Positions 5,309 to 35,100 of a DNA stretch of 64,000 nucleotides are shown one piece after another. A program made the position numbers and the translations under genes. Below the pieces are notes generated by a model. That model had not been told where the DNA came from. It was given only the letters and a program-made list of their open reading frames with translations, and searched no databases. Position 1 is the stretch's first letter; each line of letters begins with the position of its first letter. This DNA comes from Nemertoderma westbladi. Its lineage: Eukaryota > Animalia > Xenacoelomorpha. The DNA lies in assembly GCA_032718475.1 (NCBI GenBank), contig JAUCBJ010009151.1:62001-126000 (forward strand), read 5' to 3'.

Positions 5309-5309
5309 A

Positions 5310-10210: not shown

Positions 10211-10342
10211 TGATGAATTATTTCACTATAGGATAGCATTAGTAGTATAACGTAAAAACTTTCGAAAATCCGACGCATTTTGATTAAGTCACAGTAATGT
10301 AATATGCCTACTCATATCAGTACACATAAAACCCCTAGTTAA

Positions 10343-10429: not shown

Positions 10430-10464
10430 GGGGCAATTTATTTTCATTTCATACAATTTGACAA

Positions 10465-10603
10465 ACCAATGAGGTGCGTACAACACATGGAACGATGAGT
10501 TAGGCCAATCATAGGGCATGGAATATCTTATTGCTCCAATGTGAGGCCATGGAATACTCTAGAAAGTTCTAGTAGATTCTATGTCCCAGATTTAGTATAT
10601 AAA
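10465..10603 (+). promoter_or_regulatory. LTR Pol II promoter: three CCAAT boxes, heat-shock-element-like array (10552-10579), TATA box (10596-10603)
   Basis: CCAAT..CATGGAA three times; GAA-ta-CTC-ta-GAA-ag-TTC-ta-GTA-ga-TTC; TATATAAA. Same motifs in the 3' LTR (30260-30311). Confidence 0.6.
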
Positions 10604-12416: not shown

Positions 12417-12426
12417 GTGAGGTATA
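12417..12426 (+). promoter_or_regulatory. Non-tRNA primer-binding position GTGAGGTATA, complementary to LTR-internal TATACCTCAC (11130-11139)
   Basis: No TGG start next to the LTR; exact 10-nt reverse complement present in both LTR copies (11130-11139, 30835-30844). Confidence 0.7.
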
Positions 12427-13444
12427 TTTTATTTTATGAAAGTGAGAGATATACTTTGCAGTGGTATATGTTTGTTTACCTCACAACAGTGAGGTATATT
12501 TTATTAAATATCTTAACTGAAAGTGCGTGCGCACTTTACAGTGAGATATATATATATAAATATATATTGTTAGCTATTGTAAAAGTAGGAGATATTTAAA
12601 AATTTAAGGTTAGTAAAATTTAGTAATTTGTAGAACGTCCCCTGCTTCAGTAGCCTTTTAGGGTAGCTAGTACTTTTGTATTTAATATTTGACTAGCTAA
12701 TAGTTAGTTTGTAGCAATTTGTTTTACGCCGTGTGTGTGCGGTGTTACTTTTCGGTACTTGAAAAGGTACATAGGGTTTAAAGACCAAGTTGTATCGGTA
12801 CCTAGGAAGATTTTTCGTAGAGTAGAAGTAAAACTCTCACCTTCGACTTTTCAGGACTCAAGGACTCATTTCTGGACCGCTTCGAGGATTAGACCGCTTT
12901 TCGCAAAGTTTGGGAGACAAAAAATTCGTCCGCACCGCCGAAAACGGAACGACCCACGTCCGGTTTGTATTTGGGAATTTGTACGACTGGAAGATCAAAG
13001 GAACGTAAGTTTTACGACTCGTGTCGTTCAAACTTAAGAAAGCACAGTAGTACTCAAAATTTGTGGGTTTCACTGTCTATTAGTAGTGTTGTTGGTACTT
13101 ATTTTCCCGTTAGACATTGCTGTTTTGCCTATTATTTGTACTTGTTGATCTACATTTTGGTAACGTATACTGTTATCTCATTTATTCGTACAAATTTAGC
13201 CAGTAGGCTAGATTATTACTTATTTTATTATATACTTTGTTAATTTTATTTGTACCGGTTAGGGTATATATATCAAGGTAAGTTTGTCATTTGGACATTT
13301 CGACATTTCGACATTCTGACTTTGTTGATTTATTTGTACCGGTTAGGGTATATATATGCTATATATATACCGAGGTAAGTTTGACATTTCAACATTCAGA
13401 TATTTTGAAATTTTATTACCCGTACTTGATGTATATAATAAGAC

Positions 13445-14055
13445 ATGAGTGACACACCCCATTCGACTCGATACCCCCCTACCGACTATGACTCGTGCGA
13501 CCCGGACAGATCGACAGTAGACGAACCGAGAAGGAGAACCCGAGATTCTACCGATGTCACACCGCGTGCGTCGCCGGTACCCCGAACGGAAATACCGGAA
13601 GCCGCAACGCGTGGCGACGGCAGAATCGAAGATTTCCTTACCGTCCCGCAGACCAGATCGCGGGAACCGGACATGGTAAGTTCGACTGGAAGCCAGGAGA
13701 ACGTTATTAGGAGTATAGGAGGACACATGGCCCAGATTACTCGGAACCTCGGAGAAGGTTTTCGCTTTTTACGCGAATTAACCACCCCGATGTCGAGATA
13801 CGAGTTCTACACCTTACAGGTAAGGATAGAAAGTAGGGTACATGCCTCCGTAGATAAACTTAAAGGTTTACACGAACTTGCAGAGTTGCGTGGCGACAAC
13901 TTTACTCAAAGATAATAGATAAGTTGGTAAGTGCGAGAGAAAGCCTTATCCAGTTTAAGTCAGTAATAAGATTGGCTCAACAGGAGCAGTTCGACCAACT
14001 GCTAGGTGAGTCAGTTTCGGACGCGTTGTTACAACCCGAAGAGGAAGAAGAGTTT
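13445..14055 (+). pseudogene. gag: BEL-1 gag N-terminal part (frameshift near 13910), interrupted by a LINE
   Basis: ATG 13445; after a frameshift reads IIDKLVSARE...LLQPEEEEEF. Removing 14056-18141 joins it in frame to LRRCGVPIEEP of ORF 18070..21126. Confidence 0.75.
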
Positions 14056-17000
14056 AAGTTTTTTTTTAAGTTTATTGTTATTTATAGGAAAATGTTATAA
14101 TTAGAACCATCACCAAAGCACAGTTTAGTTGTAATGGAATAAAAAGAAAAAGAAAAAGAAAATGTGTATGCAGTGTGCGAGGCGGTGGGTTGGTAAGGGT
14201 TGCAGCAATAGCCAGGCTAGTCGTGGCTGCCAACCGACCAAGGGTAAATGTACTGTATATGTAACTAAGTATTATATATTTGAAAAAAGATAAAATAAGA
14301 ACTGTTATAAACCTTTAATAATTGTTGGTCAGGATCACAAGGAAATATAATAATTTAATTAACCATTTTACAATACACTGTAGTGAAGAAACAGTCCAGT
14401 CGCAGTGTATGTGAGAAGGAAATATAATAAGATAGAGCCAGACATATAGGGAGATATTGTGTAATGTATTATTATGACGTTACGTCATGTGTTCAAATAG
14501 GTATGTTTTAAATTGACGTTTAAATGAAAATTTAGATTTGCTAATAATTAGACTAGAGGGGAGACTGTTCCACAATACTGGCCCAGTGACTGATAATCCT
14601 TGGTGTGCTACATTGAGACGGGTTAACGGTACTACGAATTTGCCTAAAGTAGATGAACGTATATAAATCAATATCAGACAATTTAGTAAAAAAATTTGAA
14701 AGAGGGTGATTATTAGAAGATTTTGATATATCGAACATTAACTGGCCTAATTGTAATTCAAATATAGATTCGATTGGCAAAACATTTAGTGATTTGTAAA
14801 GTGGCACAGAGTGAGCCCGGTAGTCACTAAATGTTATGCAACGCAAGATTTTATTAACTTTAATTCTTAGTGGACGTGTTATTAATTTGCAGGCAGTACC
14901 CCAAGCAAGAATTCCAGAAGTGATGTAAGGATTAATTAAAGTATAATACGTAAAATTTGGCTTGGGAAAAAGTGTCTTAATTTATAAAAAAGTCCGGAGG
15001 ATCTAGATTAAGGATGTAATTTATATGCGTTTTCCAGCTCAAATTGTCATCGATAAAGATACCTAAGTACTTAGTGCTATTTACCTTAGTAATTTCATTG
15101 GCTTTAATTTTAACTTTCGGTAGTCCAAGGCAGTTTTTGTTACTAAAAATAGAGTATTCTGTTTTACTAAGATTAAGTGATAATGAGTTGTCTATAAGCC
15201 AGTCCGAAATTTTTTCCAGTTCAGTGTTTGTGTTGTTAATCAATAATTTTAAGTCTGAATTGAAGCACAGTAACGTCGTATCGTCGGCAAATAAAGTTGT
15301 CAAAAATTTGGATGCGTCCGGTAAGTCGTTCACATATAAAAGAAACAGCAATTGTGAAAGGACTGAACCCTGGGGCGTTCCGCAGGTTACCGGAAGAGTG
15401 GGTGAGATTATGCCATTTAAGGATACTGATTGTGTACGGTCTGTTAGAAAACTCCTAAGTAAAGTCTGGGGGGTGCCTCGAATTCCGTAAGATTCTAATT
15501 TTTTAAATAAGGGAGAGTGGTTCAGCGTATCAAACGCTTTTTTTAAATCTAGATAAATTACGCAGATAGATTCTTTTGAGTCAAGGTGAAATCAAATTTT
15601 TTCTGTAATTGTTAGAATAGCCGAAGCCGTAGAAATCCTCTTTCGAAAACCGAATTGTGATGCAGTCAAAATACAGAAACGATCTAAATAAGATTGGAGC
15701 TGTGAGTATATAACCTGTTCTAGAATTTTTGTAAAAACTGGCAATAATGATATTGGCCTATAGTTATTAGAATCTAGTGGATCACCCCCCTTAAAACATG
15801 GGATTATTTTAGATTGTTTAAGAGAAACTGGATAATGACCTGTTGTGATACATAGGTTAAATAAATATGCCAGATGAGGTGCAATGTGTTCAGCAGCAAT
15901 TTTTAATAATTTACTGGGAAAGTTGTCATTAGTAGCGCTGTTTTCATTTATTTGTAAAAGTAGGTAGTGAATTTCAGCTACAGAAGTTTCAATAAGAGTA
16001 AATGAATTCGAGTGTCGATGGTTAATGTGGCGGGTAGGGCATCGGTTAGATCGGGGTATTGTACTGGCAAGTTTTGGTCCAATAGTTGAAAAATGTTCGT
16101 TGAAAATAGATGCTATTTTATGGGGATCAGACGTTATTTTTGCCCCTACTTCTGTTCTGAAAGCAATTTTGGTAGGGCTTAGGGATTTCTTATTTTTGTG
16201 TAATACAGAGTTAATTACAGACCATGTCTTGCGCATATTTCCTTTGTTTTTTAAATATTCTTGATTATAGAATGATTTTTCAGCGGCTCTGATTACAGTC
16301 GTTAAATTATTACGATATGTTTTATAGGCTTTTTGGGTTTCAGAACACGGTGATTTAATATATTTTTCATATAATTTATTTTTTTTAGAAATTGATTTAA
16401 TTAGCAAAGGAGTTAGCCATGGTTTGCGTGCAATTTTTCTTTTTGTAATTATTTTTTTAGGTAAGTGTTTTTGGCATAATTGATCAAAAGAATTGTAAAA
16501 AATGTCGAATTTTTTATCTGTCGGTATATTATGTGATCGGTAAGCTGCGAGAGGTGGTAATGAAAGGTCGAGCAAAAAACTAAGTTAAATTTGCTATAAT
16601 CATAGCACATTTTAGTATTGGGCTGTTTGAAAAAAGCAGAATAATTATGAAATAACGCAAATGTTCCAAGGTGGTCTGTTGTGCCAATTTCTGATAAAAA
16701 AACGCCGGCAGTAGTAAAATCATTCGTAATATTAGTAATAATATGGTCAAGCGTTGAATTAGCACCGTGTACAATTCGAGTGGGTTTTATTATTAATTGG
16801 GAAAATCCGTATGATGAAAGTATCTGTAAGTATCGTGCACTATATGATGTCATTTTGTTTAAGTTAACATTGAAGTCACCAGTGAGGACGATATCTATAT
16901 TTTTATCAGATACTTTCGCCAATGCGGGTTCTAGAATATTTATAAAATTATTGTAATTGACAGATGGGGGTCTGTATATTACACCTAACACTAAGGACTT

Positions 17001-18138
17001 CTTGTTGGATTTTTTAATTTGGATCCATTTATTATGAATTCCCGACACAGTCAAGTCGTCTCGTTCCGTAAAGGTTAGCGTATCCTTAATGTAAATTCCC
17101 ACACCCCAACCGGAGCCTGAGGAACGTCCCTCTGGTCTGTCTGATAGTAGCGGTCCTACATAGTTGTCAAGTTTTAATTTACAGTGATTGTCTTTAGCAC
17201 CTACTAATGTGTCAGTAAAAGTGATAACATCAAAATCTTCGTCTAATGTACTTAAAAATTCAGCAGTGTAAGAAAGATTATTGTTTAGACTTCTACAATT
17301 TAGGTGATATACAGAAAAAGAGTTATGATGAGAACCTATACGCTCGATTTCACTGTTAAATTTAGTATCATTATAGTATTCGCTATTTCGCGCTAAATTT
17401 TGAATGTTATTATCCGGATCAATAGTAGCAAAACTAGGATTATCAGCATTTTCGTTGAGCAAGTATAAATCGTCGGAAATTCCGAAAATATCATAGTCGT
17501 TAGACGGAATATCGCTAAAAGGAAAAATCCCATGTAAACAAAAAATGCAGTAGTGACTCGTAAAAAACTGAGACTGTTCAAGCTCTGCGGTTTCTCCATA
17601 TGTCAGGCAAGTTCCACACTGCTGGTGATAACTGTTTCTACACACCGCGCATAAAATGGTATTATCGTTATTTTTGAATCCTGAAAAACAGAGAGCACAT
17701 GAATTACTACAATTAGAGTTCGTATCAATCTTCCCACCTGCAATAATGCCTCAGCTGACAGCCTGCACACTGCATACTGTCGCTTAATACAATGTATATA
17801 TATTATACACTATGTTATAATATATAATATTAATAAATCAGTACATCCCGTTAAGCCCTGACCATATATGGGCCACTAGTGATATTGTAAGTCAGTTAAA
17901 TTAATTCTGTAAATTATTCCAAGAGTTAATAATAATTTGAATTGCCTTTCTGGATGACCAGATTAGGGGTTTCCTAGGATCCTATGCGTATTAATTTCCA
18001 TCACAGTCCAGAGAGTTATAAGGATTTAAAGAGGGAGTAATTGGCGAACTATTCTGGCGTTGTTGGAAGGTGGTAACGGCGTCGATTTCGTCGACAACAA
18101 TCTACTGCCTGGATGGGAGATTAGGGACGCTCACCAAT
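14056..18138 (-). mobile_element. CR1/L2-group (Crack/Daphne-like) LINE nested in BEL-1 gag
   Basis: AT-rich block with PHD-APE-RT coding remnants; 3' end AATAAACTTAAAAAAAAACTT on minus; only TTT duplicated at the junctions (14053-55 and 18139-41). Confidence 0.85.
14480..17750 (-). pseudogene. LINE ORF2: PHD finger, APE endonuclease and reverse transcriptase; multiple frameshifts/stops
   Basis: CALC..CAVC..HQQC..CIFC (PHD); YHLNCRSL, GVIYRPP, GDFNVNL, TLDHII, TDH (APE); NYRPISLLP, QFGFRK, GTPQGSVL, LFADDTT (RT) across ORFs 16449..17645, 15592..16575, 14977..15351, 14553..14846 and 14480..14671. Confidence 0.9.
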
Positions 18139-18141
18139 TTT

Positions 18142-21126
18142 CTTCGTAGATGCGGCGTACCGATTGAAGAACCGGAAGTGGAACCGCGAGGGACGACGGA
18201 AGTTCTTACTACGGAAGGCTCGCGAGCCTACCAAAATCCACCAATGGATAGATCATTCGTTAGCATGCGGAGCGACATTGGCGACATTAGTAGAACAGCG
18301 TCTGTAATTACTCGACAACAACAGGAGGTTGCACGCCGACAACAAGTCGTCGAGGAAGAAGCGCAACAGTGGATGGCACAGATCGCCATCGAGGGAGAGA
18401 AACAACGTAGAGAAGATGAGACGAGAATTGCGCAACTCAAGGCGCAAGCCGAAGTCGAAGCATCGGAGATGAGAAGATTAGCACGACAGAAAGAGGCATC
18501 TGACGCACGTGCTCAGTTGGAGGCACGGCAAATAAAATCACGTTTAGCTATACAGGAAGCAGAGTTAGCGGCACAACAACAAGTAGCGGATCGACTCGAA
18601 AGGGAGATGCAACTACAGTTCGAACTAAATCGTAGATCGCGCGAGGCAGCGAACGCGCAAGCGTACCTTGAACTCGACGCGAGAGATAGATCTATAAGAT
18701 CGCGAGCTGGACACGACTTGTCTGCCCTGGATCGCATGGAAGCTCGATATCGCGGAATTCAGAAGCGAATCGAGGAAGGAAGTGTGGGAGCGATAGATCG
18801 AGGAGAGGAGTTCATCGAGGATTACTGTAAACGTTTTCCCCAAGTTATTCCTATGCTCAAACCCACGACTCCGATAAAACCAGTCTTTGTTACGAAACCT
18901 AAGGAAATAACACCTGTGCGCTCGACGCAAGGTAGCAGGTTTGTTGTGACGGAAATACCGCAACCTAGGGCGACTTCATCGCCAATTTTAGCAGGTAACG
19001 TAACTAGTCCACCTACAGTAAGTCGTAGTCTACTTGTAGGAAGAGAGGAACCTGCGTTTATGACAATTAAACAGGTAAGTAAGCCATTAGTAGTTAAACC
19101 TGTGACGTGCTGTGCGAACCCAGTTATTTATAGACCGACTACGAAACCCGACTACTTTACTCGACCTTTGACACAATGTTCGACACAACCTACGACTTCG
19201 TGGAAGGCTTGCGAGCCTGCCGAACAACGGAGGAGAACGGATGTGGGTAGTACCCACGGGATCGAACAACGTTTAACGAGACCTACGACTTCGTGGAAGG
19301 CTTGTGAGCCTACCGAACGACGGAGAACCGTAGATTCTGGACCCCAACGAGTGAGACAAAAGGTAATACGCCGGACGCGAACATGCCAGCCACCTTATCC
19401 GGACGACAGCGACTCATCCAGTGACTCGGAGTCGACGGAACGGGAAATATTCCGTACTGGAGCGGCAGCGACAGCGGATTACAAACGAGAGGAACGATCG
19501 ACGAACCCCTACATCGACAATCCTCCACGAGAAACACCCCAGCAGAAACCCACGTTGCAACCAGTGGAAACGATCAGCGCCAAACAGTTCGCCGAGATGA
19601 CGGACCGACTAGCTCAACTCGAAGAACGACTTGAAGCGCAACCGTCGGATCAATCACGAACCAGCGTGAAGTTAGAACAACCTAGACAACATCGACCACC
19701 AAGGCGAGAACAGGAGACTAGACAGACTCCGACACATCGAGAAGAAGATCCCGTTAATAATTCCTACCGACGAACAACACGCGGAAGGGAACGACTGGAC
19801 GACGCCACCGAACAGGGACGCGGACAGTTGGATTTGGTTAGTGAGATTGCGAAATTCGGGGCTAGACACGGATTACCGGCACAGCAACCGCCGAAGTTCT
19901 CTGGCAACGCGAAACACTGGCGCACACTGGTAGACTACATAGAGTCCCAGATCACTAAGTGTGCTTTCACCTCGACGGAGAAGTTTAATTACTTGCTCCT
20001 AGTCCAGTCTGGTGAGCCGAAAGGATTAGCGGAAACCTTTATTGGTGTTCCCGATGCCTTTGAGTTGGCGTACGACCGTTTGTATTCGATTTACGGCGGT
20101 AACGTCGCCATAGCTAAATCCATTATCGAAGACCTCTGTAGAGGAGGCAGCATTTCGAAACCGATCGATCTTCTACGACTCGCGGACGAAATAAAAAACG
20201 CTATAGGGACTTTACGGTCCATTGGACAACTCGAGTACGCTAACGCACCGACGGTTCTCATCAGGATAATCAGTCGACTTCATCATCGACTTCGACGAAA
20301 ATGGCGACGCATCGAGTACCAGCGTGAAGAGGCCGGCGGGCTATTAAAACTCACCGACGTCTATCAACTGATTTCGCGGGAGGCCGTTATCGAGACTCAA
20401 TCGAATTATACTGATCATCATATCGGGACAGAAGGGATAGCTATTTCTGCGCCGACTCGGACTAAACCGTTTCCGACGAACGCGAAAGCCGTTACCTACA
20501 ACACCCCTACTGAGACTTCTAAAGTACTGACGCCTATCGGCACCATGCAGCCACGACAACAGTTGCCGGCGGACTTTATGGGATGCTCATATTGCGAGCG
20601 GGACGGCAGAAACCATAGCGGACATAAACTTCGTGGATGTCGCGCTTTTAAAGAGTTAGGAATCGAGGAGAGGAGACTCCAAATCCAATCTTTAGATTCT
20701 TGCTGGAGATGTACCAAGCCAGGACACGTCCGGAAGGATTGCCCGAGCGACGATACATGTCCTCTGTATGGACGTAACCATGACACGTTACTTCACACTA
20801 CTAGTCATACTCCGACCAGACGCTTTCGACGAGAGCATCCAGATAAAGCGGCTAGATGCGACGCTCCTCACAGAACTAGAACTAGAACTAGAACGCTCCT
20901 CACACAGAACCAATTGAAAGGGTTTAGCGTGATTCCTATAAAGATTACTGGAACCCGAGGGAGCAAGCGTATATACGCTATCTTAGACTCTGCGTCATCA
21001 CACAGTTATGTCGACGAACAAGTAGCTGACGTGGTTACGGACATGAGTCACGGTAAGACTGCTCAGTATACTGTTGGACGGGCCGAATATGAACAATTAC
21101 CTCATGGGAGTCCTAATGAGTTTTAG
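18142..21126 (+). pseudogene. gag: BEL-1 gag (coiled coil, DUF1759-like, three Cys/His knuckles) plus start of aspartic protease
   Basis: LPAQQPPKFSGNAKHW, LRRKW, CSYC..H..C, CWRCTKPGHVRKDC, HDTLLH; protease YAILDSASSHSYV; truncated by an internal deletion near 21060. Confidence 0.88.
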
Positions 21127-24100
21127 ACAACGCAAAGTGGCTTTCACCTGTGACGTAGAGGCCATGTTTCACCAGGTTAAGGCTTTGGAGCGGGACAGGG
21201 ACAGCTTGAGGTTTCTTTGGTATCCGGACGGAAATTTAGAACTTCCGCCAGAAACTTACCAAATGCAGGTAAGGGTCTTCGGAGCCAGGGACAGCCCCAA
21301 CTGCACCATGTACGCCTTAAAGCAGACCGCATTGGACAGACGAGACCAATTTGACCCAGAAGTAGTTCGGACAGTGGAACGAGATTTCTACGTGGATGAC
21401 GGCCTCAAAAGTTGTGACACTTTGGAGCCTGCTACAACCGTAGCACATCAACTCCAGGATTGTCTCGCTGAGGGCGGATTCCACCTGACGAAGTTCGCTT
21501 CCAACGAACCCGAACTGGTGAACTCATTTGACCCGACGGATCGTAGTGGAGGTGACTTAGACTTAGACCTAGAACCTCTGCCAACGACCAAAGTATTAGG
21601 ACTTAGTTGGGACCCTAACACCGACAATTTTAGGGTACGTGTAAGGTCCAACGACCAGACTAGACCTCTCACTAAGAGGACTTGCTTATCGACCATGAGT
21701 CGATTGTATGACCCATTGTGTTTCATTAGTCCAGTGATCCTACATGCTAGGATCATACTCCGCAGCATTTGGCAAGCCGGACTGGAATGGGACGATCCCA
21801 TCCCAGAAAAGTTAGCTGAGCAATGGAGGGACTGGGAAGCCCAACTGACGTTCCTACAAGACTATACCATACCAAGGGTATACTTTCCTTTGCAGACCAC
21901 CTTTCCTGCCGATTTAGAGCTTCACAGCTTTAGTGACGCTAGCAAGGATGGATTGGGGGTTACCTTATACCTTAGACGACAAGTGACATCGGACGGCTAC
22001 GATGTGTCTCTCGTTACTTCTAGGGCTAGAACAATGCCGTTGAAGTATATGACTGTACCTCGTGGAAAGCTGCAAGCCGGGACGATATCCACCGATATTG
22101 TCAGTCTAGTTCAACGCGAGCTGGAGGCTAACTTGAAGGTCACATATTGGACAGATGCGACGTTGGTACTTTGGTACATAAACAACAAAGCATTTGAGTT
22201 CAAGACTTTCGTAGCCAACAGACGGGCTGAAATATTAGACCGGTCGCTCAAACAAGATTGGCATCACTGTCCAGGGAAGCTGAACCCAGCTGACATCGCG
22301 TCGCGGGGGATGCAACCGCTTGACTTTTGTAAACCAGACAATAAATCCTTTTGGTTTAGAGGACCCGATTTCCTACAGCAACCATCAGACGAATGGCCAC
22401 CGTTATTCGACGCGACAACCAACACCATACCAGAGGGTGCCAAGATAAAAATCGACAAGGTTGTCTAATCCAAAGCGAAAGCCAACGCCAAGGTCAAGAG
22501 GAAACAAGGACGGACGAAATCTGATGACCTGGATGCCAGACCTGACATTACACCAGACGTCTCACCAGAATCTCAACCAGACGCTCGCATGAATCTTTCG
22601 TCGGATGTTCCACGGGAGATTTCACCAGATGTTTCGCCGGATTGTTCACCAGATTACTAGCCAGATTATTCACCAGAAGCGACACCAGATTGTTCTCCGG
22701 ATTGCTCGCCAGATTGTTTTATGGAACTCTCGACAGAATGTTTACAGGACGTCTCACCAGACTTTCCACCAGACATCTCGACAGACTGTCCACCAGACTT
22801 TGGACCAGACTTTCTGACAGAAGTTAAGCCAGACTTTCTTTGGGACCGACGACAGGACATTTCGCCGGATGTTCCGCGCTATGTCTCACCAGACTGTTCA
22901 CCGGACGCTTCACCAGACTGTCTACTAGACACTCCAGTAGAAGACCCATTGGAGCGGACTATTAGAAACTTACCGAATTTGACTTCTTTCTCTTTGGACG
23001 ACAAAGGTGTGGCCACAGCGATCACACTCCGCTCAAAGAAGGTACTTGACTTACCACCTACAGGTAAACGTGTGACTAAGGTTAGGAAGCTTACAGGCTC
23101 ACAGGAACACACTGGCACTGTGGAGTTGAAACCGTTACTGTCAGTCGACTCACTAGAAGCGGACGGTAAAGGTAAGACCGTGGAGATTGACATACTTGGG
23201 GACTCAGACAAACCTATCGGAAGGCCCGTGGGCCTACCAAGTCCAGACAAGTATCCACACTATGACTATACCTTACCTGATGACGTCACCAACACTTACG
23301 TTGACAGGATAGTGAACCTAACTAGATCATGGACTGACGCGTGCCGCAAGTTAGCATGGCTCAAACGTTTGAGATAATATTCCAGAGGCAAACGCGATTT
23401 CCTAGAGGACTTACCTTAAAGGAAGTTGGTCATTATGAAGTTGATATCATTAGACATTATCAATTGCGATATTTCGCACGAGAGTTCACAGCGATCAACC
23501 AAGGTAAACAGATTAAGTCTTCACCGATTTTGAGTTGGAGTCCGATTATTTACCGGGGCTTACTTTGCCACAAGTCCAGACTCCAAAACATCGACTTTGC
23601 ACTAGACTTTAGGTATCCTATCACCATACCGCAACACCATGAATTACAGCGCGCTATGATACTGGACGCACATGTACAACTCAAACACGTGGGTAGACAC
23701 CACTGTCTATCACACTTACGATCGAGGTTTGTACTGATTAGACCTAGTAAGGCACTGAGTTCGGTAACACGGAACTGTATGATTTGTAAGAAGGTGCACA
23801 CGAGGATAGGACACCAAGAAATGAGTGAACTACCACTAGCGAGATTACAGGCATTTAGACCCCCTTTCACTGAGACAGGGATAGACAGTTTTGGACCCAT
23901 AATCGCGAAACGCGGAAGGGTACAGGTAAAATGTTGGGGATTGATCTTCACTTGCATGGCCAGCAGAGCTGTCCATATAGAGCGTGTGACAGATTTGACC
24001 ACCAATGCCTTTATCCTAGCCTTACGGCGATTTATCGCTAGACGTGGATTGGTCAAATCCATCTATTGCGACCAAGGGACAAATATTGTGGGTGCACGGA

Positions 24101-24807
24101 ACGAAATAACCAGAGCTTTAAAGAAGTTGGACCAAAACCAGATTTCCGAGGAACTACATCCTCACCGTATTGTTTGGTATTTTAATACTCCAGACAGTCC
24201 GTGGAGAGGCGGCGTTTGGGAAAGGCTGATTGGTTCAATTAAGACAGCTATGGCTAAAGTAATACCAACGCAACACATATTAACAGACGACCAACTGACG
24301 ACGTTACTAATAGAAATCGAAGCAGTTTTAAACACTAGACCGATCGCTTTGATCCCAGACAATAACGACGCCCAGTTTGCCTTGACACCAGCGCACCTGC
24401 TTATGCAGGCGCCGACGACATTGTTGCCCATTTCGGTACCCGTTAATAGCGACGGATACGGCAACAAAGCTTGGAAAATCACTCAATTACTTGCAAATAA
24501 ATTCTGGGAAATATGGCAGAAATATTATTTGCCCTCTATTTCGACGAGAACCTCTTGGTATCTTAATACCCGATGTTTGAGACGTGGTGACCACGTTTTA
24601 TTGGCTGAAGCCAATCTGAAAAGACGGTTTTGGCTGACTGGAGTCATTTTGACCACGCACCCTACATCTGGTGTAGTGAGAACAGTTACTGTAAGGACTA
24701 TCGACGGTCGTACCATAGACAGACCTGTACAACGTCTCGTGCTCCTTGAGGAGACTAGAAACGAGACAGGTGACGACTACAAACCTCCACCCAATATTAG
24801 TAAATAG
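21074..24807 (+). pseudogene. pol: BEL-1 pol: RT (N-terminus deleted), Pao RNase H, low-complexity linker, integrase
   Basis: LLDGPNMNN, DVEAMFHQV, FYVDDGL (RT); HSFSDASKDG, YWTDAT, NPADIASRG (RH); H..H..CMIC, GIDSFGP, CDQGTN, GGVWERLIGSIK (IN); stops at 22466-68 and ~22660, frameshift ~23375. Confidence 0.93.
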
Positions 24808-25527
24808 AGATGTGGGACCTTTGTTGGCCGCCACATAGACCTACCGTATTTAGTAATTTAGCATTTTGTATTACTGTATGTGCATTTGTAATCCTCTTCA
24901 CTGTAGATAGAGACAGCAGTGGAATTCCATTGTCTTTATATGTGAACATGGAGGGTAGTACCCTTATGTATCACATAGGAGCGGGATTGTGTGTACAGTA
25001 GGAATGGAATTCCACTTGGAACCCACAAGTGAGACAATTTTTCAAAAATTATTAGACAAATCCATTTAGTTGGATTTAAATTTAAGAAAAATGATTCTCC
25101 AGTGAATGCGAATTCTAGAATACAGCTAGATAAAAATTAAAATTGGGGAGGACAAGAGCGGATGGAAGGCTTGCGAGCCTACCGATAAATAAAATTTTTT
25201 TTTGGAAAAGTAGTCGTGTCTGCTATTATTTAGACCGAATTAATTCTCGACTGCATTATTTCTTTGGGAATGTAGTTTGGGAAATTAAAAGGTGAGTATT
25301 TTAGACTCGCGGCTAGTTTACCCGGAATTCGTTTTTTATCGGCACATTTTTTTGGATTAGGAGCCAGTGCGAAATCACGCGAACCCGAAGTCATTAGGCA
25401 AATGGGTTGGGGTTTTAGAGCAAAGTTGAGCCAAAAGCCAACAAACTCTAAGTCACCTCACATCTAACCTCTATTTTGTGCTTCATCTAGTAGAAACATA
25501 ACGATATGTAACCATATATACGCGTAT

Positions 25528-28500
25528 ATGATGGCGGAGAAGATTTATAAGGAGTTACGTCAAGGGTTTATGCAGGAACAAGAGCACCAGGCGCCGTTTA
25601 ATCGTTATGGAGCTAAAAACTTTAGTGTGTTTGGAGTGGAGAGTATGGCTAGGAGTACAGCCAAGCTCGCTAAATCCAAGGCGGACCCGAATGTTACGCG
25701 ACAGCGATTGGACGCTTATAACAAAAGAACGGAGGAATTACCCGCGGAGTTCAATGCGTTATATCCTTACGACGCGTTATGCGATGCTAGTGACATTTGC
25801 GAGGATCCAGACACCGAAATACGCCGATTATATCATATGCTGCAATATTTGACGGTAAATGAACCCTTACCTGCAGCCAGAGACGAATTTGAAGGAATGC
25901 ATCTTTATAGATGCGCTTGAGGGGCGGATCCAGAGACAAAGGATGCGTTCTCCATATACAAACTGTTTTATAAATGTGGAGCATGTATGCGCGAGCAAGA
26001 CAGCGCGATTCCTATGCGGTTGAACTCGGAGAACCCCGAGCCGATATTAGCGCGATGCTCATACCACCAAAGTCTACGTTACCAAGAAGGCGGATACCCT
26101 TTGACGAATCCGTATCATTCATTTAAAATGAGTGGACCGAACGCGGGTGAGATCGTTATTTATGAACCTAAGTTAGTCGAACCAGACGTCTACAGCATGG
26201 TAGTGGACGAATCTAACAAGTCGACGCAAGAGAAACGGGAAGCTTTGAGCCTCTACAGGGCGTACAAGGCGTACGAGAAAGGCGAGATCAAGGAGTTCGG
26301 CGGAAGGCTCGCGAGCCTACCATTCTATTGGATATCCCACGATCAAACCGAACCTAAGGAGATGACACCCGAGCTCTTCGATAGTATCACCTTTGCTCAG
26401 CGTTTGTCGCAGAGACTACAGATACCTCATGTCGAGATGACGCGAGAACCTCAACCCCATTCTGCTGGAATGATAGTACCGGTTGCGAGACCAACTAGTT
26501 TTCCTATTAGTATACCGACCCGGAAGGAGACAACTTACGAGATCCCTATAGTTGAACACCCGGAGATCATTTCGAACCTGGATTTCATCCCATCGGTTAC
26601 CTATGGTGATGTGTTAGAATCAGCCGAGTTGCGTAGAACAATAGTTCAGAAAATCGTACGCAACGTGCCTCCACATATTACGGACTTTAAGGAAGTGGAT
26701 CGCACAGGGACGGATATCGCACCTTGTATCTTGCGAGGATATCTGACGAGAACTATTCGATTATGGATCGGAGTCGGAACATTTGAGACCGACACCGACA
26801 TCGCGACCAATTGGACCGGTAAACCTATTAGTTTCGATGATGAAAAGTCGATTGGGAGAATTTGGAACCCTACCGACGATTTACTCGACGATTGGGACGT
26901 GACTAGCCGATCTCTGAAGGAGATTGGTTACATGTTTTACGATATTGAAGGAGGAAGCCACCAGCAAAGCGTCACTTCGAAGACTATACAGATTAGAGCA
27001 CCAGATGGCGTGTTACATGTCTTCAGCCGACAAAGAAGCGATAGAAAGATGCCTATGCCGGAAGGAACGACGCAAAGACACGCGATGATAAAACGGATAG
27101 TTAAATCTATGGATCTGGCTTGTAGCATAGAAGCTAGGATGTTGCCAAAGGCCGTGCGAGACGTTGTGTTAGACAAAAGCATTGTCAAGATCGGATCCGG
27201 TGTACGGGATGACCTTATTAGCGACTTTGCAGGGATGCCCAGGGGAGAGGATCGATTGCCTACGCCGTACGTGGATACTAGACCATTGTTGCTTTGGGCT
27301 ATCGAGCAAGGATACTTTAGAGAGTATAACACGCTAAAAACTGGGACGGGTTATATCTCATATCTAATGTTCAGTTGGGATTATAAGGAGAGTAAGAGGA
27401 GCAAATACACGGACGTATACGGAGAGGGAGACACTCCCGACATAAACGAGTTCGAGTCACAGCTAAAGTTGCGAGGTTGCGTGTACTGGGCGATTGCTTC
27501 ACCTCCGCGAATAATCTTACAATACTACTTGGCGATAGAATCTTCGGTCAACGTCTGCTTCATCGCCGATGTTGTGTCTAGGGCTCTAAAGCGACATCCG
27601 TTATGTCTCGGTGAAGGACATACCTTTTACGACGGAGGAAGGACGCATACTGATGTATTCCTACGATTTCTCCAACCCTTTTATAACACCGATGCGCACT
27701 GCGAAGTTTTCACGCGAGCAGGACTTAGCGTTTTCAGGGACGTCAATCTCACTCACGCAGGAAGCCTAGTTGACAGACCGTCGATGTTAACGTTAGTACC
27801 CTATGACGGGGAACGCCACGCGGAATTCGAAGGCCCGGAAGGATCCTGGAAGGCTCGCGAGCCTACCGCCCATCACGACGATGTGGATCCGACCGAGTTG
27901 GCGCTAATAGACGAACCGTTGCGGCAACTATTAGAAATAGAGGAGAATCTTCCGAGGAAGACGCGAACTGAGATACGCGTGTTGGAGAAAAGCGATGCCA
28001 TGGTTTGTGTACAACCCACGGAGACGAACATACCGACTGACCCGGATGATGAGAATTATCACGTGGACGGTAGCGCTCGCCCCATCGGAGATCTTATCTA
28101 TGAGCGAGTTTGGTACCCTGCCAACACTATTTGTGGCAGATGCGGGGCAACTGGCCACCACGCAAAGAAATGCGGAGCGAAACACATATCTCTACCGGAC
28201 TAGGTATGCAACTGGTGCGGGGATCAGCGTTCGCACACTTTCTACACTTGCTGGTGTTTCGTGGCGCAGTGCACGTATTGTAATATTAAAGGCCATAGGG
28301 CGTCCGAATATCAACTTAGAGACGTTCCCTATGAGCATATGTCAGTTAAAATCGTTCGACAGCTATTCGACCATTGGGAGAATCTAGCAGACGAGCATGT
28401 ATCAACGCAGCGACGCCGTTTCCCTATTAGAGCACACTTAGGATTTTGGGCCGTAAACCCTCTCATAATGTCGAAGGAAGGATACGTGTCGGCTATGCCT

Positions 28501-29285
28501 CAATACGACGAACTTTTGGAGGTGCTGGATTTATTGCCACTGGAGAGCGGATTTAAAGTTGTGCGGGACTACTTCTACAGGTACACCCCGACAACAAGAA
28601 TACTTGGAACTTTCAAACTGTGGTGAACAAGATTACCGCCGGGGAATTCGACAAATTGCGAGTTGAACAGCGGAATCGAGGAGCCTGGCATTCGATAGCT
28701 TGGGCATACAGGAGCGCATTTTATCACAAACTCGTAACCTCGTGCATTCTAGACGAGACCGACGTTTTGCGTGAGACTGGCTTCAAGGCCACGCCGTTAG
28801 CTGAAAAGACGCGTCACCCACAGGATGATCCGCAACTTCGTATACTCAGAGCCCAAAAGGCCAGACAAGAGATAAAGAAAGTAGTAAATGTCGCCGAGAG
28901 GACGACATCAAAGTCGCAAATCCGGATGACTCGGGGCACGGTTTCCCTTGCTAGAGAACCACGCGGAGGGACAGGATACGCTTTGCCGGAACCCATTAGG
29001 ATTCAAACGACATCAGAGAGCGAGGTGTCAACGGACGGAATGGTCCCACCCTTTCGACTTCCTCCCAGCATTGTAGAAACTCGATCCGATGTTAATCCGA
29101 CAGTTGGAATCGGACGAGGATTTAGAGGACTGAGCGCACGACGGATGTTCGAGACTCCCGTCGTCCCATTTCCTAGCGTTTTGGAACCACCGACAACTCG
29201 ACACCGAAGTCCGAGTCCAGTTCGATCTCGACCTCCACCCAGTCGTACTAGAGGACGTGGACGAGCCCGTTCGGCCAAGGAATAG
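25528..29285 (+). pseudogene. BEL-1 extra 3' ORF: DEDDy 3'-5' exonuclease-like domain, three CCHC knuckles, basic/Pro-rich tail
   Basis: ORFs 25528..25920, 25987..28203 and 28261..28626 share one frame (two in-frame stops), then frameshift to 28620..29285. Motifs GYMFYDIEG, IQIRAPDG, LPKAVRDVVLDKSIVKIGSGVRDD, YVDT, YLAIE; CGRC..H..C, CNWC..H..C, CTYC..H. Confidence 0.75.
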
Positions 29286-29918
29286 GAAAGAGAAAAGAAG
29301 GAAGGCTTGCAAGCCTACCGATTTTAATGTTTGTATTGGACATTATATTTGGGATTTATATTTGGGATTTATATTGGGATACTATATCGAACATTGAGTT
29401 TGGAGGAGCGAGATAGAGAAGGAAGGCTTGCGAGCCTACCGTTAGCAATTAGTGCTCAGGAGAAGACATCCAGACCAGCAGGACGAACTATTGAGATCGT
29501 CAGGAGGACACTTTAAGACTTATTTGAAAGATTTTAGCGCATTATGTTTATTTTATATTTAGACTGATTTAATTTGGTGGAAGTTTATTATGTGTATTTA
29601 CAATATATAAAACTTGTTGAAAGATTTGAAATTATTTGTTCGATTCGTTTTGATTTATTTCGTTCTGATTTGTTTAATTTGTTTATCTCGATAACCGAAA
29701 GCCTTTTTTTGTATTTTATGCACTAAAGTTGATTGGTAAATTTGTATTTTGTATGTATGATTGATTATATTTACGCCGTACCTGCAATATTAAGTATGCA
29801 ATAATTAGATAGTGATTATTTTATATTTTAGGCCCTACCAGTAGATTTAGAAGTATTTGTAAATAGTTTTGTATTTCGATTGGTGAAAACAGTCTTACTT
29901 ACTGTTTTCATGGAGCGG

Positions 29919-32121
29919 TGATGAATTATTTCACTATAGGATAGCATTTGTAGTATAACTTAAAAACTTTCGAAAATCCGACGATATTTGATTAAGTTAC
30001 AGTAATGTAATATGCCTACTCATATCAGTACACATAAAACCCCTAGTTAATTTCGTGGTGTAGTGGTCAGATGGTTAAGGTGTTGGTTGCATTACATAGG
30101 TTACGAGTTCGAATCCCAGTCGGGAAATTTGCATTTTGGGGCAATTTATTTTCATTTCATACAATTTGACAAACCAATGAGGTGCGTACAACACATGGAA
30201 CGATGAGTTAGGCCAATCATAGGGCATGGAATATCTTATTGCTCCAATGTGAGGCCATGGAATACTCTAGAAAGTTCTAGTAGATTCTATGTCCCAGATT
30301 TAGTATATAAAGGGCTGGTTTGCCTTCGGTTATCACCTTATCCCTCTCTACGCCATTCTCAGTCAGCACAACTTACGGTTCACTACTCTTGTTAAACTTG
30401 ATTTATTCAGTTTATTATGTTTCTTGTTGAAACTATTTGGCAATTCTGTTTGATAAAGTTTTGTAAACTGTAAATATACTATAAACTTCTGAACATGTTT
30501 TTCTGCATTTGTCCAACTTTGGGACAGCAAAGCATCAGGAAGATGGCCGCCTAGACCGTTAGGCCGTCAGCAACGCAGGGAAAGGATGTCCACAACACGC
30601 TAGCGCCCACATTAGCTTAGACCGCGCACCCCCTTCGCCCTTCGAAATGCTCCACTTGCCATGCAGCGCCCGCTTTATGAGGAAGGTAAGACTTTGTTTG
30701 ACACCCTTGCCCACCGTAAGACCTATAGATCAGGGTAAGCGTGACGCCGCAAATTTAGGATCAAATAACTATATTTTGGCAGAACCCCCCCCCCCCCCCC
30801 CCCTTGTCAGTAGTACGAACCCCTGGGTTACCTGTATACCTCACAGGTGCGAATTATTGCCGTTCGTCAGTACGCGAGTACACATTAGGTACAGACAGCA
30901 TATGTTCCATAATTTAGTGATTCGTAGTACTGACTGTTTGGTACCGGTTCGCTTTGTAGAGCATACATTAGTACCCTACCCCCGCCTGAAGTTAGTTATT
31001 TGATCAAGCAAGGAGTATTTCTGCTACCGGCACACTGCTTGGCCTAGGGAGGTTTTATTAATATCCTACCGCGCCTTGCCACGTACTGATAGGTATTGCT
31101 ACTAACTACCGCAGCAACAAAGTTCTAGAATCAAATTTGTATACCAGATCAGCTAACGTACAGTAGCAATTAACCCCTATTTCTTATCTTACAACCAGAA
31201 TCTGGTATTTGTGCCTATCACGGGTGTAGTTACTAACACCGTGGTTGCCCAGTTGAGTTGTGGATAGGAAGGATAGAGCTTTGACGTCATTTGTAAGTAT
31301 AAAGCTCTACAAAACGCGACTAGCTTATTTTAGTAGCTAGCGCACGGTATTATTTCGGTCAGAGAATTACCAAAACCTAGTAAATGATATACACCAAAAT
31401 TGTTTTATTGTAAAACACCCACACACACACGCCCTAAAACATATTTACCATTAGAGTTCCTACTAGATAGCGCAATTTAGATTTAGGCAGAATTTATCTG
31501 TATTTGTAAATTAGGATCAGATATTTAGTTACGGCAAGGGAGCATTTCATCTTCGTTATTAAACTGTTGTTTTTCTGCGCATCAGTTATTGTTACATTTA
31601 GGTACGACCTCTTTTAGGCTGATTCAGACAGGGGGATCAGTATTGTTACGCTAGGTCCAAAACCAACCTAGCTCGTATATAAACCATATAAATCACACCG
31701 CGGCAAGTTACTGTATTTAGGACTGTCAGCGATAGTTAGGATTCGCTGCGCGGGGATTGTTTTCCCGTGAGTTTGGTCTGTTACTGTAACTGTACATCTG
31801 CCATACCGGTTAGAGGACAGGTATCCTTTTGTCTAGTACGTAGGCATTAGACCCGCCCACGTACATAGAATAGACACCAGGCTCTGCTCCTCGCCAGTAG
31901 TAGTTTGTGTATTGTATCTGTTTGTTTAAATATCCTGGACTGGGAATTGTTGTCAGATACTGTACGAGCCCGTTTCATTACTAGAGTCTTACAGTAAGAT
32001 ACATCGTTACTAGGATCTGGTAAGCGGTATACTACTGGACTTTACGGATAGAGATATTCTATAGCTTCGTATTTGTAGATTTGTAGGCTGTAGGGTAGTT
32101 CCTACCGTAGAGGACACAACA
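29919..32121 (+). repeat. BEL-1 3' LTR, preceded by a short purine tract GGAGCGG (29912-29918)
   Basis: Direct repeat of 10211-12416. Confidence 0.96.
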
Positions 32122-35100
32122 GCCACTGTTATACCAACTGGTAATCGCTGCACTCGTGTTACCACTGTTACACCAACTGGTAATCGCTGCACTCGTGTAG
32201 CCACTGTTATACCGACCATTAATCGCTGCATTCGTGTAGCCACTGTTATACCAACCGGTAATCGCTGCACTCAAGTAGCCACTGTTATACCAACTGGTAA
32301 TCACTGCACTCGTGTAGCCACTGTTACACCAACTGGTAATTGCTGCACTCGTGCAGCCACTGTCATACTGACTGGTAATCGCTGCACTCGTGTAGCCACA
32401 GTTATACCAACCAGTAATCGCTGCACTTGTGTTGCCACTGTTATACCAACCGGTAATCACTGCACTCATGTAGCCACTGTTACACCAACTGGTAATCGCT
32501 GCACTCATGTAGCCACTGTTATACCGACTAGTAATCGCTACACTCGTTTAGCCATTGTTACACCAACTGGTAATCGCTGCACTCGTTTAGCCACTGTTAT
32601 ACCGACCGGTAATCGCTGCACTCGTGTTGCCACTGTTACACCAACTGGTAATCGCTGCACTCGTGTTGCCGCTGTTATACCGACCAGTAATTGCTGCACT
32701 CATGTAGCCACTGTTATACCAACCGGTAATTGCTGCACTCGTGTAGCCACTGTTATACCAAAGCGGTAATCGCTGCACTAGTGTAGCCACTGTTATACTG
32801 ACCAGTAATCGCTGCACTCGTTTAGCCACTGTTAAACCAACCGGTAATCGCTGCACTCGTGTAGCCACTGTTATACCAACCAGTAATCACTGTACTCGTG
32901 TAGCCACTGTTATACCAACCAGTAATTGCTGCACTCATGTAGCCACTGTTATACCGAACGGAAATCGCTGCACTCATGTAGCCACTGTTATACCAACCGG
33001 TAATCACTGCACTCGTGTTGCCACTGTTACACCAACTGGTAATTGCTGCACTAATTTAGCCACTGTTATACCGACCGTAAATCGCTGCACTCGTGTAGCC
33101 ACTGTTATACCAACTGGTAATCGGTGCACTCGTTTAGCCACTGTTATACCAACCGGTAATCGCTGCACTCATGTAGCCACTGTTATACCAACTGGTAATC
33201 ACTGCACTCGTGTAGTCACTGTTACACCAACTGGTAATTGCTGCACTCATGCAGCCACTGTCATACCGACAGGTAATCGCTGCACTCGTGTAGCCACTGT
33301 TATACCGACCGGTAATCGCTGCACTCGTGTAGCCACTGTTATACCTACCAGTAATCGCTGCACTTGTGTAGCCACTGTTATACCAACTGGTAATTGCTGC
33401 ACTCGTGTAGCCACTGTTATACCAAAGCGGTAATAGCTGCACTAGTGTAGCCACTGTTATACTGACCAGTAATTGCTGCACTCGTTTAGCCACTGTTAAA
33501 CCAACCGGTAATCGCTGCACTCGTGTAACCACTGTTATACCGACCAGTAATCACTGTACTCGTGTAGCCACTGTTATACCAACCGGTAATTGCTGCACTC
33601 ATGTAGCCACTGTTATACCGAACGGAAATCGCTGCACTCATGTAGCCACTGTTATACCAACCAGTATTCACTGCACTCGTGTTGCCACTGTTACACCAAC
33701 TGGTAATTGCTGCACTAATTTAGCCACTGTTATACCGACCGTAAATCGCTGCACTCGTGTAGCCACTGTTATACCAACTGGTAATCGGTGCACTCGTTTA
33801 GCCACTGTTATACCAACCGGTAATCGCTGCACTCATGTAGCCATTGTTATACCAACCGGAAATCGCTGCACTCATGTAGCCACTGTTATACCAACTGGTA
33901 ATCACTGCACTCGTGTAGCCACTGTTACACCAACTGGTAATTGCTGCACTCGTGCAGCCACTGTCATACCGAGTGGTAATCGCTGCACTCGTGTAGCCAC
34001 AGTTATACCAACCAGTAATTGCTGCACTTGTGTAGCCACTGTTATACCAACTGGTAATCACTGCACTCGTGTAGCCACTGTTACACCAACTGGTAATTGC
34101 TGCACTCGTGCAGCCACTGTCATACCGAGTGGTAATCGCTGCACTCGTGTAGCCACAGTTATACCAACCAGTACTTGCTGCACTTGTGTAGCCACTGGTA
34201 TACCATCCGGTAAATGCAACACTCGTTTAGCCACTGTTATACCGACCGGATATCTGCACTCATGTAGCCACTGTTATACCGACCGGTAATCGCTGCACTC
34301 GTGTAGCCACTGTTATACCTACCAGTAATCGCTGCACTTGTGTAGCCACTGTTATACTGACTAGTAATCACTGAACTCGTGTAGCCATTGTTATACCAAC
34401 CGGTAATCGCTGCATTCGTGAAGCCACTGTTATAGCGACTGGTAAATGCTACACTCGTTTAGCCACTGTTACACTGACCAGTAATCGCTGCACATATGTA
34501 GCCACTATTATACCAACTGGTAATTGGTGCACTCGTTTAGCCACTGTTATACCAACCGGTAATCGCTGCACTCGTGTAGCCACTGTTAGACCAACTGGTA
34601 ATTTGTGCACTCGTTTAGCCACTGTTATACCAACTGGTAATCGCTGCACTCGTGTAGCCACTGTTTTACCGACCGATAAATGCAACACTCGTTTAGCCAC
34701 TGTTATACCGACCGGATATCTGCACTCATGTAGCCACTGTTATACCGACCGGTAATAGCTGCACTCGTGTAGCCACTGTTATACCTACCAGTAATCGCTG
34801 CACTTGTGTAGCCACTGTTATACTGACTAGTAATCACTGAACTCGTGTAGCCATTGTTATACCAACCGGTAATCGCTGCATTCGTGAAGCCACTGTTATA
34901 GCGACTGGTAAATGCTACACTCGTTTAGCCACTGTTACACCAGCTGGTAATTGCTGCACTCGTGTAGCCACTGTTATACCAACCGGTAATCACTGCACTC
35001 GTGTAGCCACTGTTACACCGACCAGTAATCGCTGCATTCGTGTAGCCACTGTTAGACCAACTGGTAATTTGTGCACTCGTTTAGCCACTGTTATACCAAC

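Follow-up and report, generated by a model that had tools for sequence, protein, structure and literature searches.

A 20-nt motif with a predicted hairpin fold, repeated along a BEL/Pao retrotransposon of Nemertoderma westbladi: a possible RNA tag

The BEL/Pao element

The window analysed (64,000 nucleotides, positions 62,001 to 126,000 of contig JAUCBJ010009151.1) contained a full-length BEL/Pao element at 10211-32121, with a nested LINE and an extra 3' ORF (Table 1). The first-pass annotation had placed a repeated motif across 18213..29440 of an element with a label of its own ('BEL-1'); the motif is inside a BEL/Pao element, but the element is far larger than that range.

Two TG...CA LTRs are flanked by a 5-bp target duplication, and the coding order is that of BEL/Pao: Gag with DUF1759 and CCHC knuckles, followed by PR-RT-RH (Peptidase_A17)-IN (DUF5641), PR being recognised from the LDSAS motif only. 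A tRNA primer-binding site beginning with TGG is usual for BEL/Pao, not universal; we found none after the 5' LTR, where the sequence starts with GTG. The best integrase matches were about 40% identical, and no integrase relatives were found in viral contigs. Summed contig depth in run X1 was 14,600-68,900 for the element and 574-744 for the nested LINE, which fits a high-copy family and is not a measure of copy number. A distant BEL/Pao relative without the motif was also found in the 64-kb window; its top-ranked 7-mer looks like one motif arm and has no fixed hairpin.

Table 1. Features of the BEL/Pao element and copies of the 20-nt motif (window coordinates)
Feature	Position	Strand	Remarks
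Left target-site duplication, 5 bp	10206..10210	+	within 39-bp satellite
5' LTR, TG...CA, 2206 bp	10211..12416	+	no motif copy
Primer-binding site position	12417..12427	+	without initial TGG; 10-nt complement in each LTR (11130, 30835)
gag 5' part, ATG at 13445	13445..14052	+	stop near 13915, cut by nested LINE; gag identity inferred from position
Nested PHD/endonuclease/RT LINE, CR1/L2-like	14053..18097	-	bounds approximate; no motif copy
gag and protease start	18098..21126	+	DUF1759 capsid 19897-20310; CCHC knuckles ~20584-20800
Motif copy 1	18213..18232	+	loop CGCG; gag N-terminal region (EGSRAY)
Motif copy 2	19202..19221	+	loop UGCG; A·G replaces A·A mismatch; gag linker (WKACEP)
Motif copy 3	19295..19314	+	loop UGUG; from copy 2 by 93-bp duplication
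pol: partial RT and Peptidase_A17/RNase H region	21047..22468	+	protease-RT intervening sequence apparently missing here; loose ends at 21074
Motif copy 4	23219..23238	+	loop CGUG; compensatory C8-G13; low-complexity pol linker (GRPVGLP)
pol integrase, H2C2 and DUF5641	23338..24807	+	32-41% identity to BEL/Pao-type integrases; named ones from animals
Motif copy 5	25164..25183	+	loop UGCG; non-coding, upstream of ORF3
ORF3, broken, four pieces	25468..29285	+	core 26893-27600, probably a DEDD 3'-5' exonuclease; CCHC-like knuckles (three) ~28132-28310
Motif copy 6	26302..26321	+	loop CGCG; ORF3 (GRLASLP)
Motif copy 7	27848..27867	+	loop CGCG; exonuclease-knuckle linker of ORF3 (WKAREP)
Motif copy 8	29300..29319	+	loop UGCA, site polymorphic in family; 3' untranslated region
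Motif copy 9	29421..29440	+	loop UGCG; 3' untranslated region; common to bulk of family contigs
3' LTR, 2203 bp	29919..32121	+	identical to 5' LTR at 2165/2200 aligned positions (98%)
Right target-site duplication	32122..32126	+	same as left one

The ORF3 protein

The core of ORF3 looks like a DEDD 3'-5' exonuclease. An Atlas search returned PF01612 in 30 of 30 named matches (top score 0.93, 172 shared features, recognition 2618), and a second Atlas query gave a similar result. By eye, we also read DIE, RDD and YxAxE as candidate ExoI/II/III acidic motifs, in comparison with those of WRN. Pfam and PDB searches for the exonuclease were negative, the PDB search giving none or one chance match, and sequence homologues of ORF3 numbered 0 of 6592 candidates, 0 in the representatives library and 0 of 1312. 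Two AlphaFold models had pLDDT of 29 and 34, too poor for a fold search. For the N-terminus, which contains Cys/His residues, no Pfam match or homologue was found.

The repeated motif

In a match scan of the 64-kb window, all eight positions of the first-pass annotation matched GGAAGGCTYGYRAGCCTRCC with 0 mismatches on the + strand, in one orientation, and the translations it gave (EGSRAY, WKACEP/WKAREP and GRLASLP) are correct. The count of eight was incomplete: a ninth copy, carrying a double change from U8-A13 to C8-G13, had been missed in the pol linker. With three mismatches or fewer, 0.01 copies are expected by chance per window, and the observed count was reached in 0 of 100 shuffles. 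Over the whole window with filters off, the nine copies scored 34.7-40.8 bits versus 8.6 bits for the next unrelated match, and no decayed copies were found. The 42 kb of the window outside the element contained no copy, and neither did the nested LINE.

The copies are spread over 11.2 kb of the element interior. They represent 7 independent origins, not 9: those at 19202 and 19295 derive from the 93-bp duplication, and those at 29300 and 29421 have a 38-nt similarity in common. Orientation is identical in all copies and the asymmetry is fixed (7 independent origins, p about 0.016, two-sided as the doubled one-sided value). Fourteen motif positions are invariant across the 7 origins, with almost no flank similarity. 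Six of the nine copies are coding and use all three codon phases; together with the sharp copy edges (20-21 nt) and unrelated flanks, this supports the earlier view that the constraint is on nucleotides.

No copy lies inside the conserved blocks, which occupy 34% of the region (0/9, p=0.054); the copies occur only in linkers and non-coding parts. Neither 2.2-kb LTR nor the leader has a copy (p=0.14), the first being at 18213. Target-site duplications longer than 3 nt were not found at any copy, and a single 3-mer was seen among the nine. The flank pair -1/+21 was C·A in three copies, U·G in four and A·G in two, never Watson-Crick, which is suggestive only (Fisher p=0.10).

Predicted hairpin fold

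The motif is predicted to fold into a stem of 7 bp, interrupted at 3/18 by a purine-purine mismatch (A·A; A·G in copy 2), and a four-base YGYR loop. The loop is YGYG in 8/9 copies and exactly UGCG in 3/9; G10 is present in all nine and G12 in eight. Pairing is complete in the stem (63 of 63 cells), and one-sided changes occur only at unpaired positions (9, 11, 12 or 18). Six of the seven stem pairs are invariant, and the only stem change among the nine copies is the compensatory pair of the copy at 23219; as a single double change, reached in 66 of 500 shuffles, this covariation is not significant. The hairpin formed in 9/9 folds of 50 nt, with modest z-scores (-2.08 to +0.26). In a 220-nt context on the + strand, the hairpin probability was 0.00-0.20 for copies 2, 3 and 8, which, as we read it, probably pair with neighbours.

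By computation, a self-duplex is favoured over two hairpins by 7-20 kcal/mol. In the fully extended form of the + strand, 81 of 81 cells pair (36/500 shuffles), and all copy-copy cross-pairings were between -19.8 and -34.9 kcal/mol; on the - strand the duplex is weaker for five of the nine copies. The first-pass annotation had argued from G:U pairs for a fully paired palindrome. This argument is weak; the varying centre is the predicted hairpin loop, and the strand asymmetry of loop changes (five C>T events, one G>A) gave p=0.22.

CpG decay is an unlikely source of the loop variation because CpG observed/expected was 0.87-1.34 in the body of the element; ordinary transition bias may be a source. 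Neutral change since insertion should have altered about 1.4 of the 180 motif bases, so that some variants may not be tolerated ones. An Rfam scan gave nothing at the motif and two weak snoRNA matches elsewhere.

Variation among family copies

At the 29300 site, G accounted for a depth of 420.9 out of 494.5 in run X1 and, in run X3, of 428.8 out of 793.8. The A that had led to this copy being described as a compensatory palindrome is thus polymorphic in the family, with G the major base in depth in both runs. One contig has a broken stem pair at 29314.

Family contigs from two studies contained tandem motif copies with four different spacers of 24-30 nt, three of them in both runs; therefore, the motif persists while the spacers turn over. 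Divergent contigs span the 27848 site with 0 gaps (run X4), and a divergent contig spans the 23219 site with one gap letter in 472 nt (organism B). The last motif had no variant at 4% or above and its 3' flank likewise, hence the substitution test is without power; the absence of motif substitutions among the 40 listed of 1478 substitution rows has no power either. Family contigs continuing into unlike sequence made up 1-3%, a weak measure that depends on seed length. Each of the 4 viral and 44 metagenome loci found by motif scans had one match only and did not resemble the element, and we read these loci as chance matches.

Interpretation of the motif

We tentatively favor the explanation that the motif is a family-specific, dispersed RNA hairpin tag whose YGYG loop is bound by the CCHC knuckles of the element for packaging. 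On the element RNA, the motif would fold into a small hairpin displaying G10 and G12, and the knuckles, most likely those of Gag, would bind the loop and mark the long RNA as self; the ORF3 knuckles are a second candidate reader. We infer that many weak sites along an RNA of roughly 16 kb or longer may be bound cooperatively by Gag, that this would favor element RNA over host RNA and solo-LTR transcripts, and that knuckle chaperoning may later turn hairpins into inter-copy duplexes. Such a tag is favored by the observed copies, which are confined to the internal region and lie outside folded domains, and by the element-encoded CCHC knuckles, whereas the lack of a copy in the 5' leader, the home of retroviral and Ty1/Ty3 signals, argues against it. 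The first-pass interpretation as a whole, a repeated RNA packaging/dimerisation or protein-binding signal possibly for the CCHC proteins, is partly supported.

It is unlikely, in our estimate, that the copies serve chiefly as palindromes compatible with one another, whose hairpins would kiss and form inter-copy duplexes of 14-20 bp, dimerising and compacting the very long RNA at many points. The complete pairing of the extended + strand form and the cross-pairing of every copy with every other, weaker on the - strand for most copies, fit this explanation, and so do HIV DIS and MoMuLV DIS-1/2, which go from hairpin to extended duplex (PMC7599994), and Ty1 PAL1/2 and Ty3 PAL6, which drive dimerisation. 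However, known dimer palindromes are few and located at the 5' end, the fixed A·A mismatch has a stability cost, the UGUG loop would lead to four G·U pairs, the change at 23219 cuts cross-pairing by about 5-8 kcal/mol, and the excess of C>T over G>A events lacks significance.

DNA sites bound by protein dimers are commonly palindromes whose centre varies. With a similarly low probability, the motif might be such a double-stranded DNA site, in which 4 bp separate two inverted GGWAGGCY half-sites and to which a factor of the element (VANC-like anti-silencing) or of the host would bind along the integrated copy. The top 7-mer among 6017 in the distant relative is the arm-like GTAGGCC (7 seen, 0.67 expected), borderline after correction for the number of words and noticed post hoc. 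The tandem expansion in the 3' UTR recalls VANC targets (PMC5735166), and the N-terminus of ORF3, with its Cys/His residues and no assigned domain, would also agree with a DNA-bound site. The single orientation with fixed asymmetry and the absence of copies from the LTRs and leader count against it, as does the coding location of most copies, VANC motifs being non-coding.

We consider it quite improbable that the motif is functionless, its hairpin stalling reverse transcriptase, spreading by template switching, surviving in tolerant linkers and being homogenised by palindrome-templated correction. Two copy pairs are indeed local duplications, the copies are restricted to linkers and non-coding parts, descent would give the same orientation, and quasi-palindrome correction is a possible source of symmetric double changes; but the invariance of fourteen positions among almost unrelated flanks, the absence from the window of the decayed copies to be expected, and the persistence of the motif among changing spacers speak against this. 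That the motif is a genome-wide micro-insertion (a miniature mobile palindrome) unrelated to the element is very improbable in spite of its sharp edges, since copies are absent from the 42 kb of the window outside the element and from the nested LINE, target duplications are nil beyond one 3-mer, divergent relatives span two sites without a motif-sized gap, and, as weak evidence, few family contigs run into unlike sequence.

Extending the RNA tag explanation, we speculate, with considerable doubt, that very long LTR retrotransposons carry, for self-recognition, a family RNA barcode repeated along the whole transcript. In the present BEL/Pao lineage, a self-complementary YGYG hairpin would first recruit the knuckles and then zip copy-to-copy to dimerise and compact the RNA, the ORF3 exonuclease-knuckle fusion might read the same tag to tell own from other RNA, and sister families would each own a tag.

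Comparison with known systems

Studies of RNA selection and dimerisation in LTR retrotransposons mainly concern yeast Ty1 and Ty3, with signals at the 5' end. A literature search covering a minority of the subscription journals turned up no account of this motif and none of hairpins dispersed through an LTR element. If the motif is a tag, packaging by dispersed signals would extend to retrotransposons, and this would suggest how very long elements stay specific; a motif of 20 nt, nine-fold and almost invariant, lends itself to direct tests with knuckle peptides and short RNAs.

A second point of interest is that two distant BEL/Pao families have a DEDD-like ORF3 with knuckles. The DEDDy ORF3 of the Juno and Vesta LTR retrotransposons of bdelloid rotifers is likewise an additional 3' ORF that resembles a DEDD-type exonuclease (PMC5408684). 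The present ORF3 belongs to a BEL/Pao element and is joined to three CCHC-like knuckles, and no sequence homologue was found. The words 'hairpin', 'stem-loop' and 'CCHC' have 0 occurrences in the Juno/Vesta paper (PMC5408684).

The anti-silencing motifs of VANDAL/VANC in Arabidopsis are also family-specific, short, repeated along a transposable element and tandem-expanded (PMC5735166). They are, however, of 8-9 bp in non-coding double-stranded DNA of a DNA transposon, whereas the present motif is a 20-nt quasi-palindrome, two thirds of whose copies are coding. HIV-1 DIS, MoMuLV DIS-1/2, Ty1 PAL1/2 and Ty3 PAL6 share with it a self-complementary hairpin convertible to an extended duplex, here computed to be more stable; DIS/PAL sites are one or two, mutually different and at the 5' end, whereas here one sequence occurs nine times over an 11 kb interior.

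Dispersed packaging signals with a loop motif are described for the HBV pregenomic RNA (PMC8677749, abstract). The signals of HBV and of single-stranded RNA viruses (MS2, enteroviruses) resemble the present motif in having many stem-loops with a common loop motif through the coding sequence of one RNA. HBV/MS2-type signals have degenerate stems and are read by capsid protein, whereas the present stem is self-complementary and hardly varies, and it is carried by an LTR retrotransposon.

In RSV, the second G of the UGCG tetraloop fits the NC zinc-knuckle pocket (PMC7599994, PMC5035970), and a change from UGCG to GAGA left Gag specificity in vitro unreduced. The present motif resembles SL-C of RSV µΨ in its predicted short stem and G-displaying tetraloop; the second loop G is invariant here, and CCHC knuckles are encoded by the element. 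In RSV there is one such loop, in the 5' leader within a three-way junction, whereas the element has nine stand-alone predicted hairpins, none of them in the leader.

Motif copies and predicted fold

The motif, a 20-nt near-palindrome carried in one orientation by a BEL/Pao LTR retrotransposon (the host element), is real and non-random. All eight copies listed by the first-pass annotation were recovered as exact matches on the forward strand, and a ninth, with two mismatches, was found at 23219; shuffled sequences gave 0.01 chance matches on average. A covariance model made from the nine copies and run over the 64 kb without filters scored them at 34.7-40.8 bits, a match by construction, and nothing beyond them and their own reverse strands exceeded 8.6 bits, so the window holds no decayed copy, and no copy lies beyond the host element. 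Because 19202/19295 and 29300/29421 are local duplicate pairs, seven independent origins are counted.

Fourteen of the 20 positions are invariant, and position 21 is always a purine, after which similarity ends. Each copy, alone or in 50 nt, is predicted to fold into a stem of two pairs and then five, separated by a 1x1 purine mismatch and capped by a four-base loop, the loop being CGCG or UGCG in three copies each and UGUG, CGUG and UGCA in the others. All stem cells pair in this predicted hairpin (63/63). The sole stem change among copies, U-A to C-G at 23219, was equalled by 66 of 500 shuffles, so the covariation is suggestive, short of proof. In 220-nt windows the hairpin probability was 0.6-1.0 for six copies and 0.00-0.20 for three of the four copies that make up the close pairs. 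All three codon phases occur among the six copies in coding sequence, and no copy falls within a conserved block (p=0.054).

Positions of the main features in the window
Feature	Position	Strand	Remarks
Host element	10211-32121		LTRs 2206 and 2203 bp
Motif copies (starts)	18213, 19202, 19295, 23219, 25164, 26302, 27848, 29300, 29421	plus	
Nested LINE	14053-18097	minus	about 4 kb, inside gag; PHD/RING-like finger before endonuclease and RT
Other LINE-type RT ORFs	1655-5323; 57617-60196		
Second LTR element	~39930-51291	minus	DUF1759; Gag and ORF3 similarity to host element
39-bp satellite	5310-10212; 32121-39917; 51292-57095; 60194-64000		covers much of the window and surrounds both LTR elements
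Exact complement of first 10 nt after 5' LTR	11130-11139; 30835-30844		within each host-element LTR
Repeat of 5' LTR end and primer-site position	12477-12505		72 nt downstream, in small hairpin
tRNA-like stretches	~10340-10420; ~30050-30125		one in each host-element LTR; no ARAGORN call
TGGAATTCCA palindromes	24918-24927; 25004-25013		between pol and ORF3
Strong splice-donor-like site	25289-25296		between pol and ORF3
Acceptor-like site	~25490		
Triloop hairpins	44229-44676; 48664-48826; 42740-42752		second element; stems differ yet pair
Low-complexity linkers	22524-22935; 45441-45574		one in each element, downstream of catalytic ORFs; 12-nt period, Cys/Pro/acidic repeats

Host element and ORF3

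The host element was assigned to BEL/Pao by DUF1759, zf-CCHC, Peptidase_A17, integrase H2C2 and DUF5641; the best of 561 integrase matches were about 40% identical. Its LTRs agree at 2165 of 2200 aligned positions and end in TG...CA, and a 5-bp duplication within the satellite borders it. This copy of the element is disrupted by stops and frameshifts, and it appears to lack sequence between protease and RT. The position directly after the 5' LTR (12417-12427) has no tRNA primer site of the TGG kind; the element may prime itself or use an unusual primer. The tRNA-like LTR stretches are possibly SINE-derived.

ORF3, the extra 3.8 kb reading frame downstream of pol, lies in four pieces and contains three CCHC-like knuckles with sub-threshold Pfam scores. 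Its core is likely a DEDD exonuclease, judging from Atlas features (30/30 named hits PF01612) and from visual inspection of motifs; searches of Pfam and PDB and for homologues were negative, and structure models were unusable. The palindromes and the donor-like and acceptor-like sites between pol and ORF3 suggest a separate, putative spliced ORF3 transcript.

Other family members

Parts of the host element are present in six public contig sets, which come from four studies and of which none is recorded as RNA; four of seven listed runs were compared over 16500-31000 and two over 29270-29470. Few contigs share the part of the 3' UTR that precedes the last copy (depth 70-880 at 29270-29388, versus 28,000-80,000 at the copy itself). 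Some members carry a single copy, and others tandem copies with four different purine-rich spacers of 24-30 nt, three of which are present in both studies; the spacers have a short purine word in common with the spacer of the host element. In divergent contigs the match starts at 29418-29419, immediately ahead of where the motif begins. Pieces with 93-95% identity cross the 27848 site with 0 gap letters and the 23219 site with 1, and a contig 88-92% identical apparently skips one gag-duplication unit. The substitution tables are without power, since variants at or above 4% are absent from the last motif and from its 3' flank alike. Pieces from a second organism, B (run X5), 93-98% identical to the host element and including the 23219 site, may reflect a close relative, a shared sample or horizontal transfer.

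Second BEL/Pao-type element

The second LTR element, which serves as an internal control, is a distant BEL/Pao relative of the host element (Gag 23% identical over 81 residues; ORF3 27% over 117 residues, pairwise E 3e-4). Its LTRs, about 560 bp, are 96% identical, and no RT/RH/IN ORF was seen in it. Its ORF3 is of the same type, exonuclease-like with three knuckles. The covariance-model scan found no copy of the 20-mer in this element, which argues that the motif is family-specific rather than host-generic. With tandem arrays masked, the element has five GG-started 5-bp triloop hairpins versus 0.55 in 150 shuffles, a pattern chosen post hoc; these are possibly the second family's own tag, and they fit family-specific RNA tags. 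Some triloop hairpins lie within 52-bp and 60-bp tandem arrays, and the background is purine-rich.

Possible function of the motif

We tentatively favour, at somewhat under even chances, the motif as an RNA tag; by analogy with RSV, the tag on the element's RNA would be recognised by the element-encoded CCHC knuckles. This reading draws on the single orientation with fixed asymmetry, variation found only at unpaired positions, a second loop G that never changes, the spread of copies throughout the transcript yet outside the LTRs, and the retention of the motif while spacers change. The low power of the substitution tables, a stem pair broken at 29314 in one contig and the polymorphic A at 29311 count against it.

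Copy-to-copy duplexes, serving dimerisation and compaction, are unlikely as the main explanation and would be compatible with the RNA tag as a later step; read as fully paired duplexes, 81/81 cells pair with G:U allowed (36/500 shuffles), and the predicted duplexes are more stable than two hairpins by 7-20 kcal/mol. A double-stranded DNA site is similarly doubtful, and in its favour the top 7-mer of the second element, GTAGGCC (7 versus 0.67), resembles the motif arm. Neutral spread is improbable. Micro-insertion is very hard to credit, and no target duplications surround the copies beyond one 3-mer.

Comparison with known systems

In the incompletely covered literature, no description was found of the motif letters, of dispersed stem-loops in LTR elements or of BEL/Pao with a DEDDy ORF3; as far as found, the motif is undescribed. 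DEDDy ORF3s have been described in rotifer LTR elements (PMC5408684), and giant LTR elements in planarians (PMC6431247). For RSV, the second G of the UGCG loop is described as occupying a knuckle pocket (PMC7599994, PMC5035970), and Gag specificity as undiminished when that loop was altered (PMC5035970). By location the motif falls outside the classical Psi, DIS/PAL (PMC11381356, PMC6844567) and VANC-target (PMC5735166) classes. In its proposed working it resembles dispersed packaging signals (PMC8677749, PMC6281560, PMC7612645), its unit being a Psi/DIS-like hairpin. The motif is a variation on an already known signal type, with a mechanism that we offer as a proposal.
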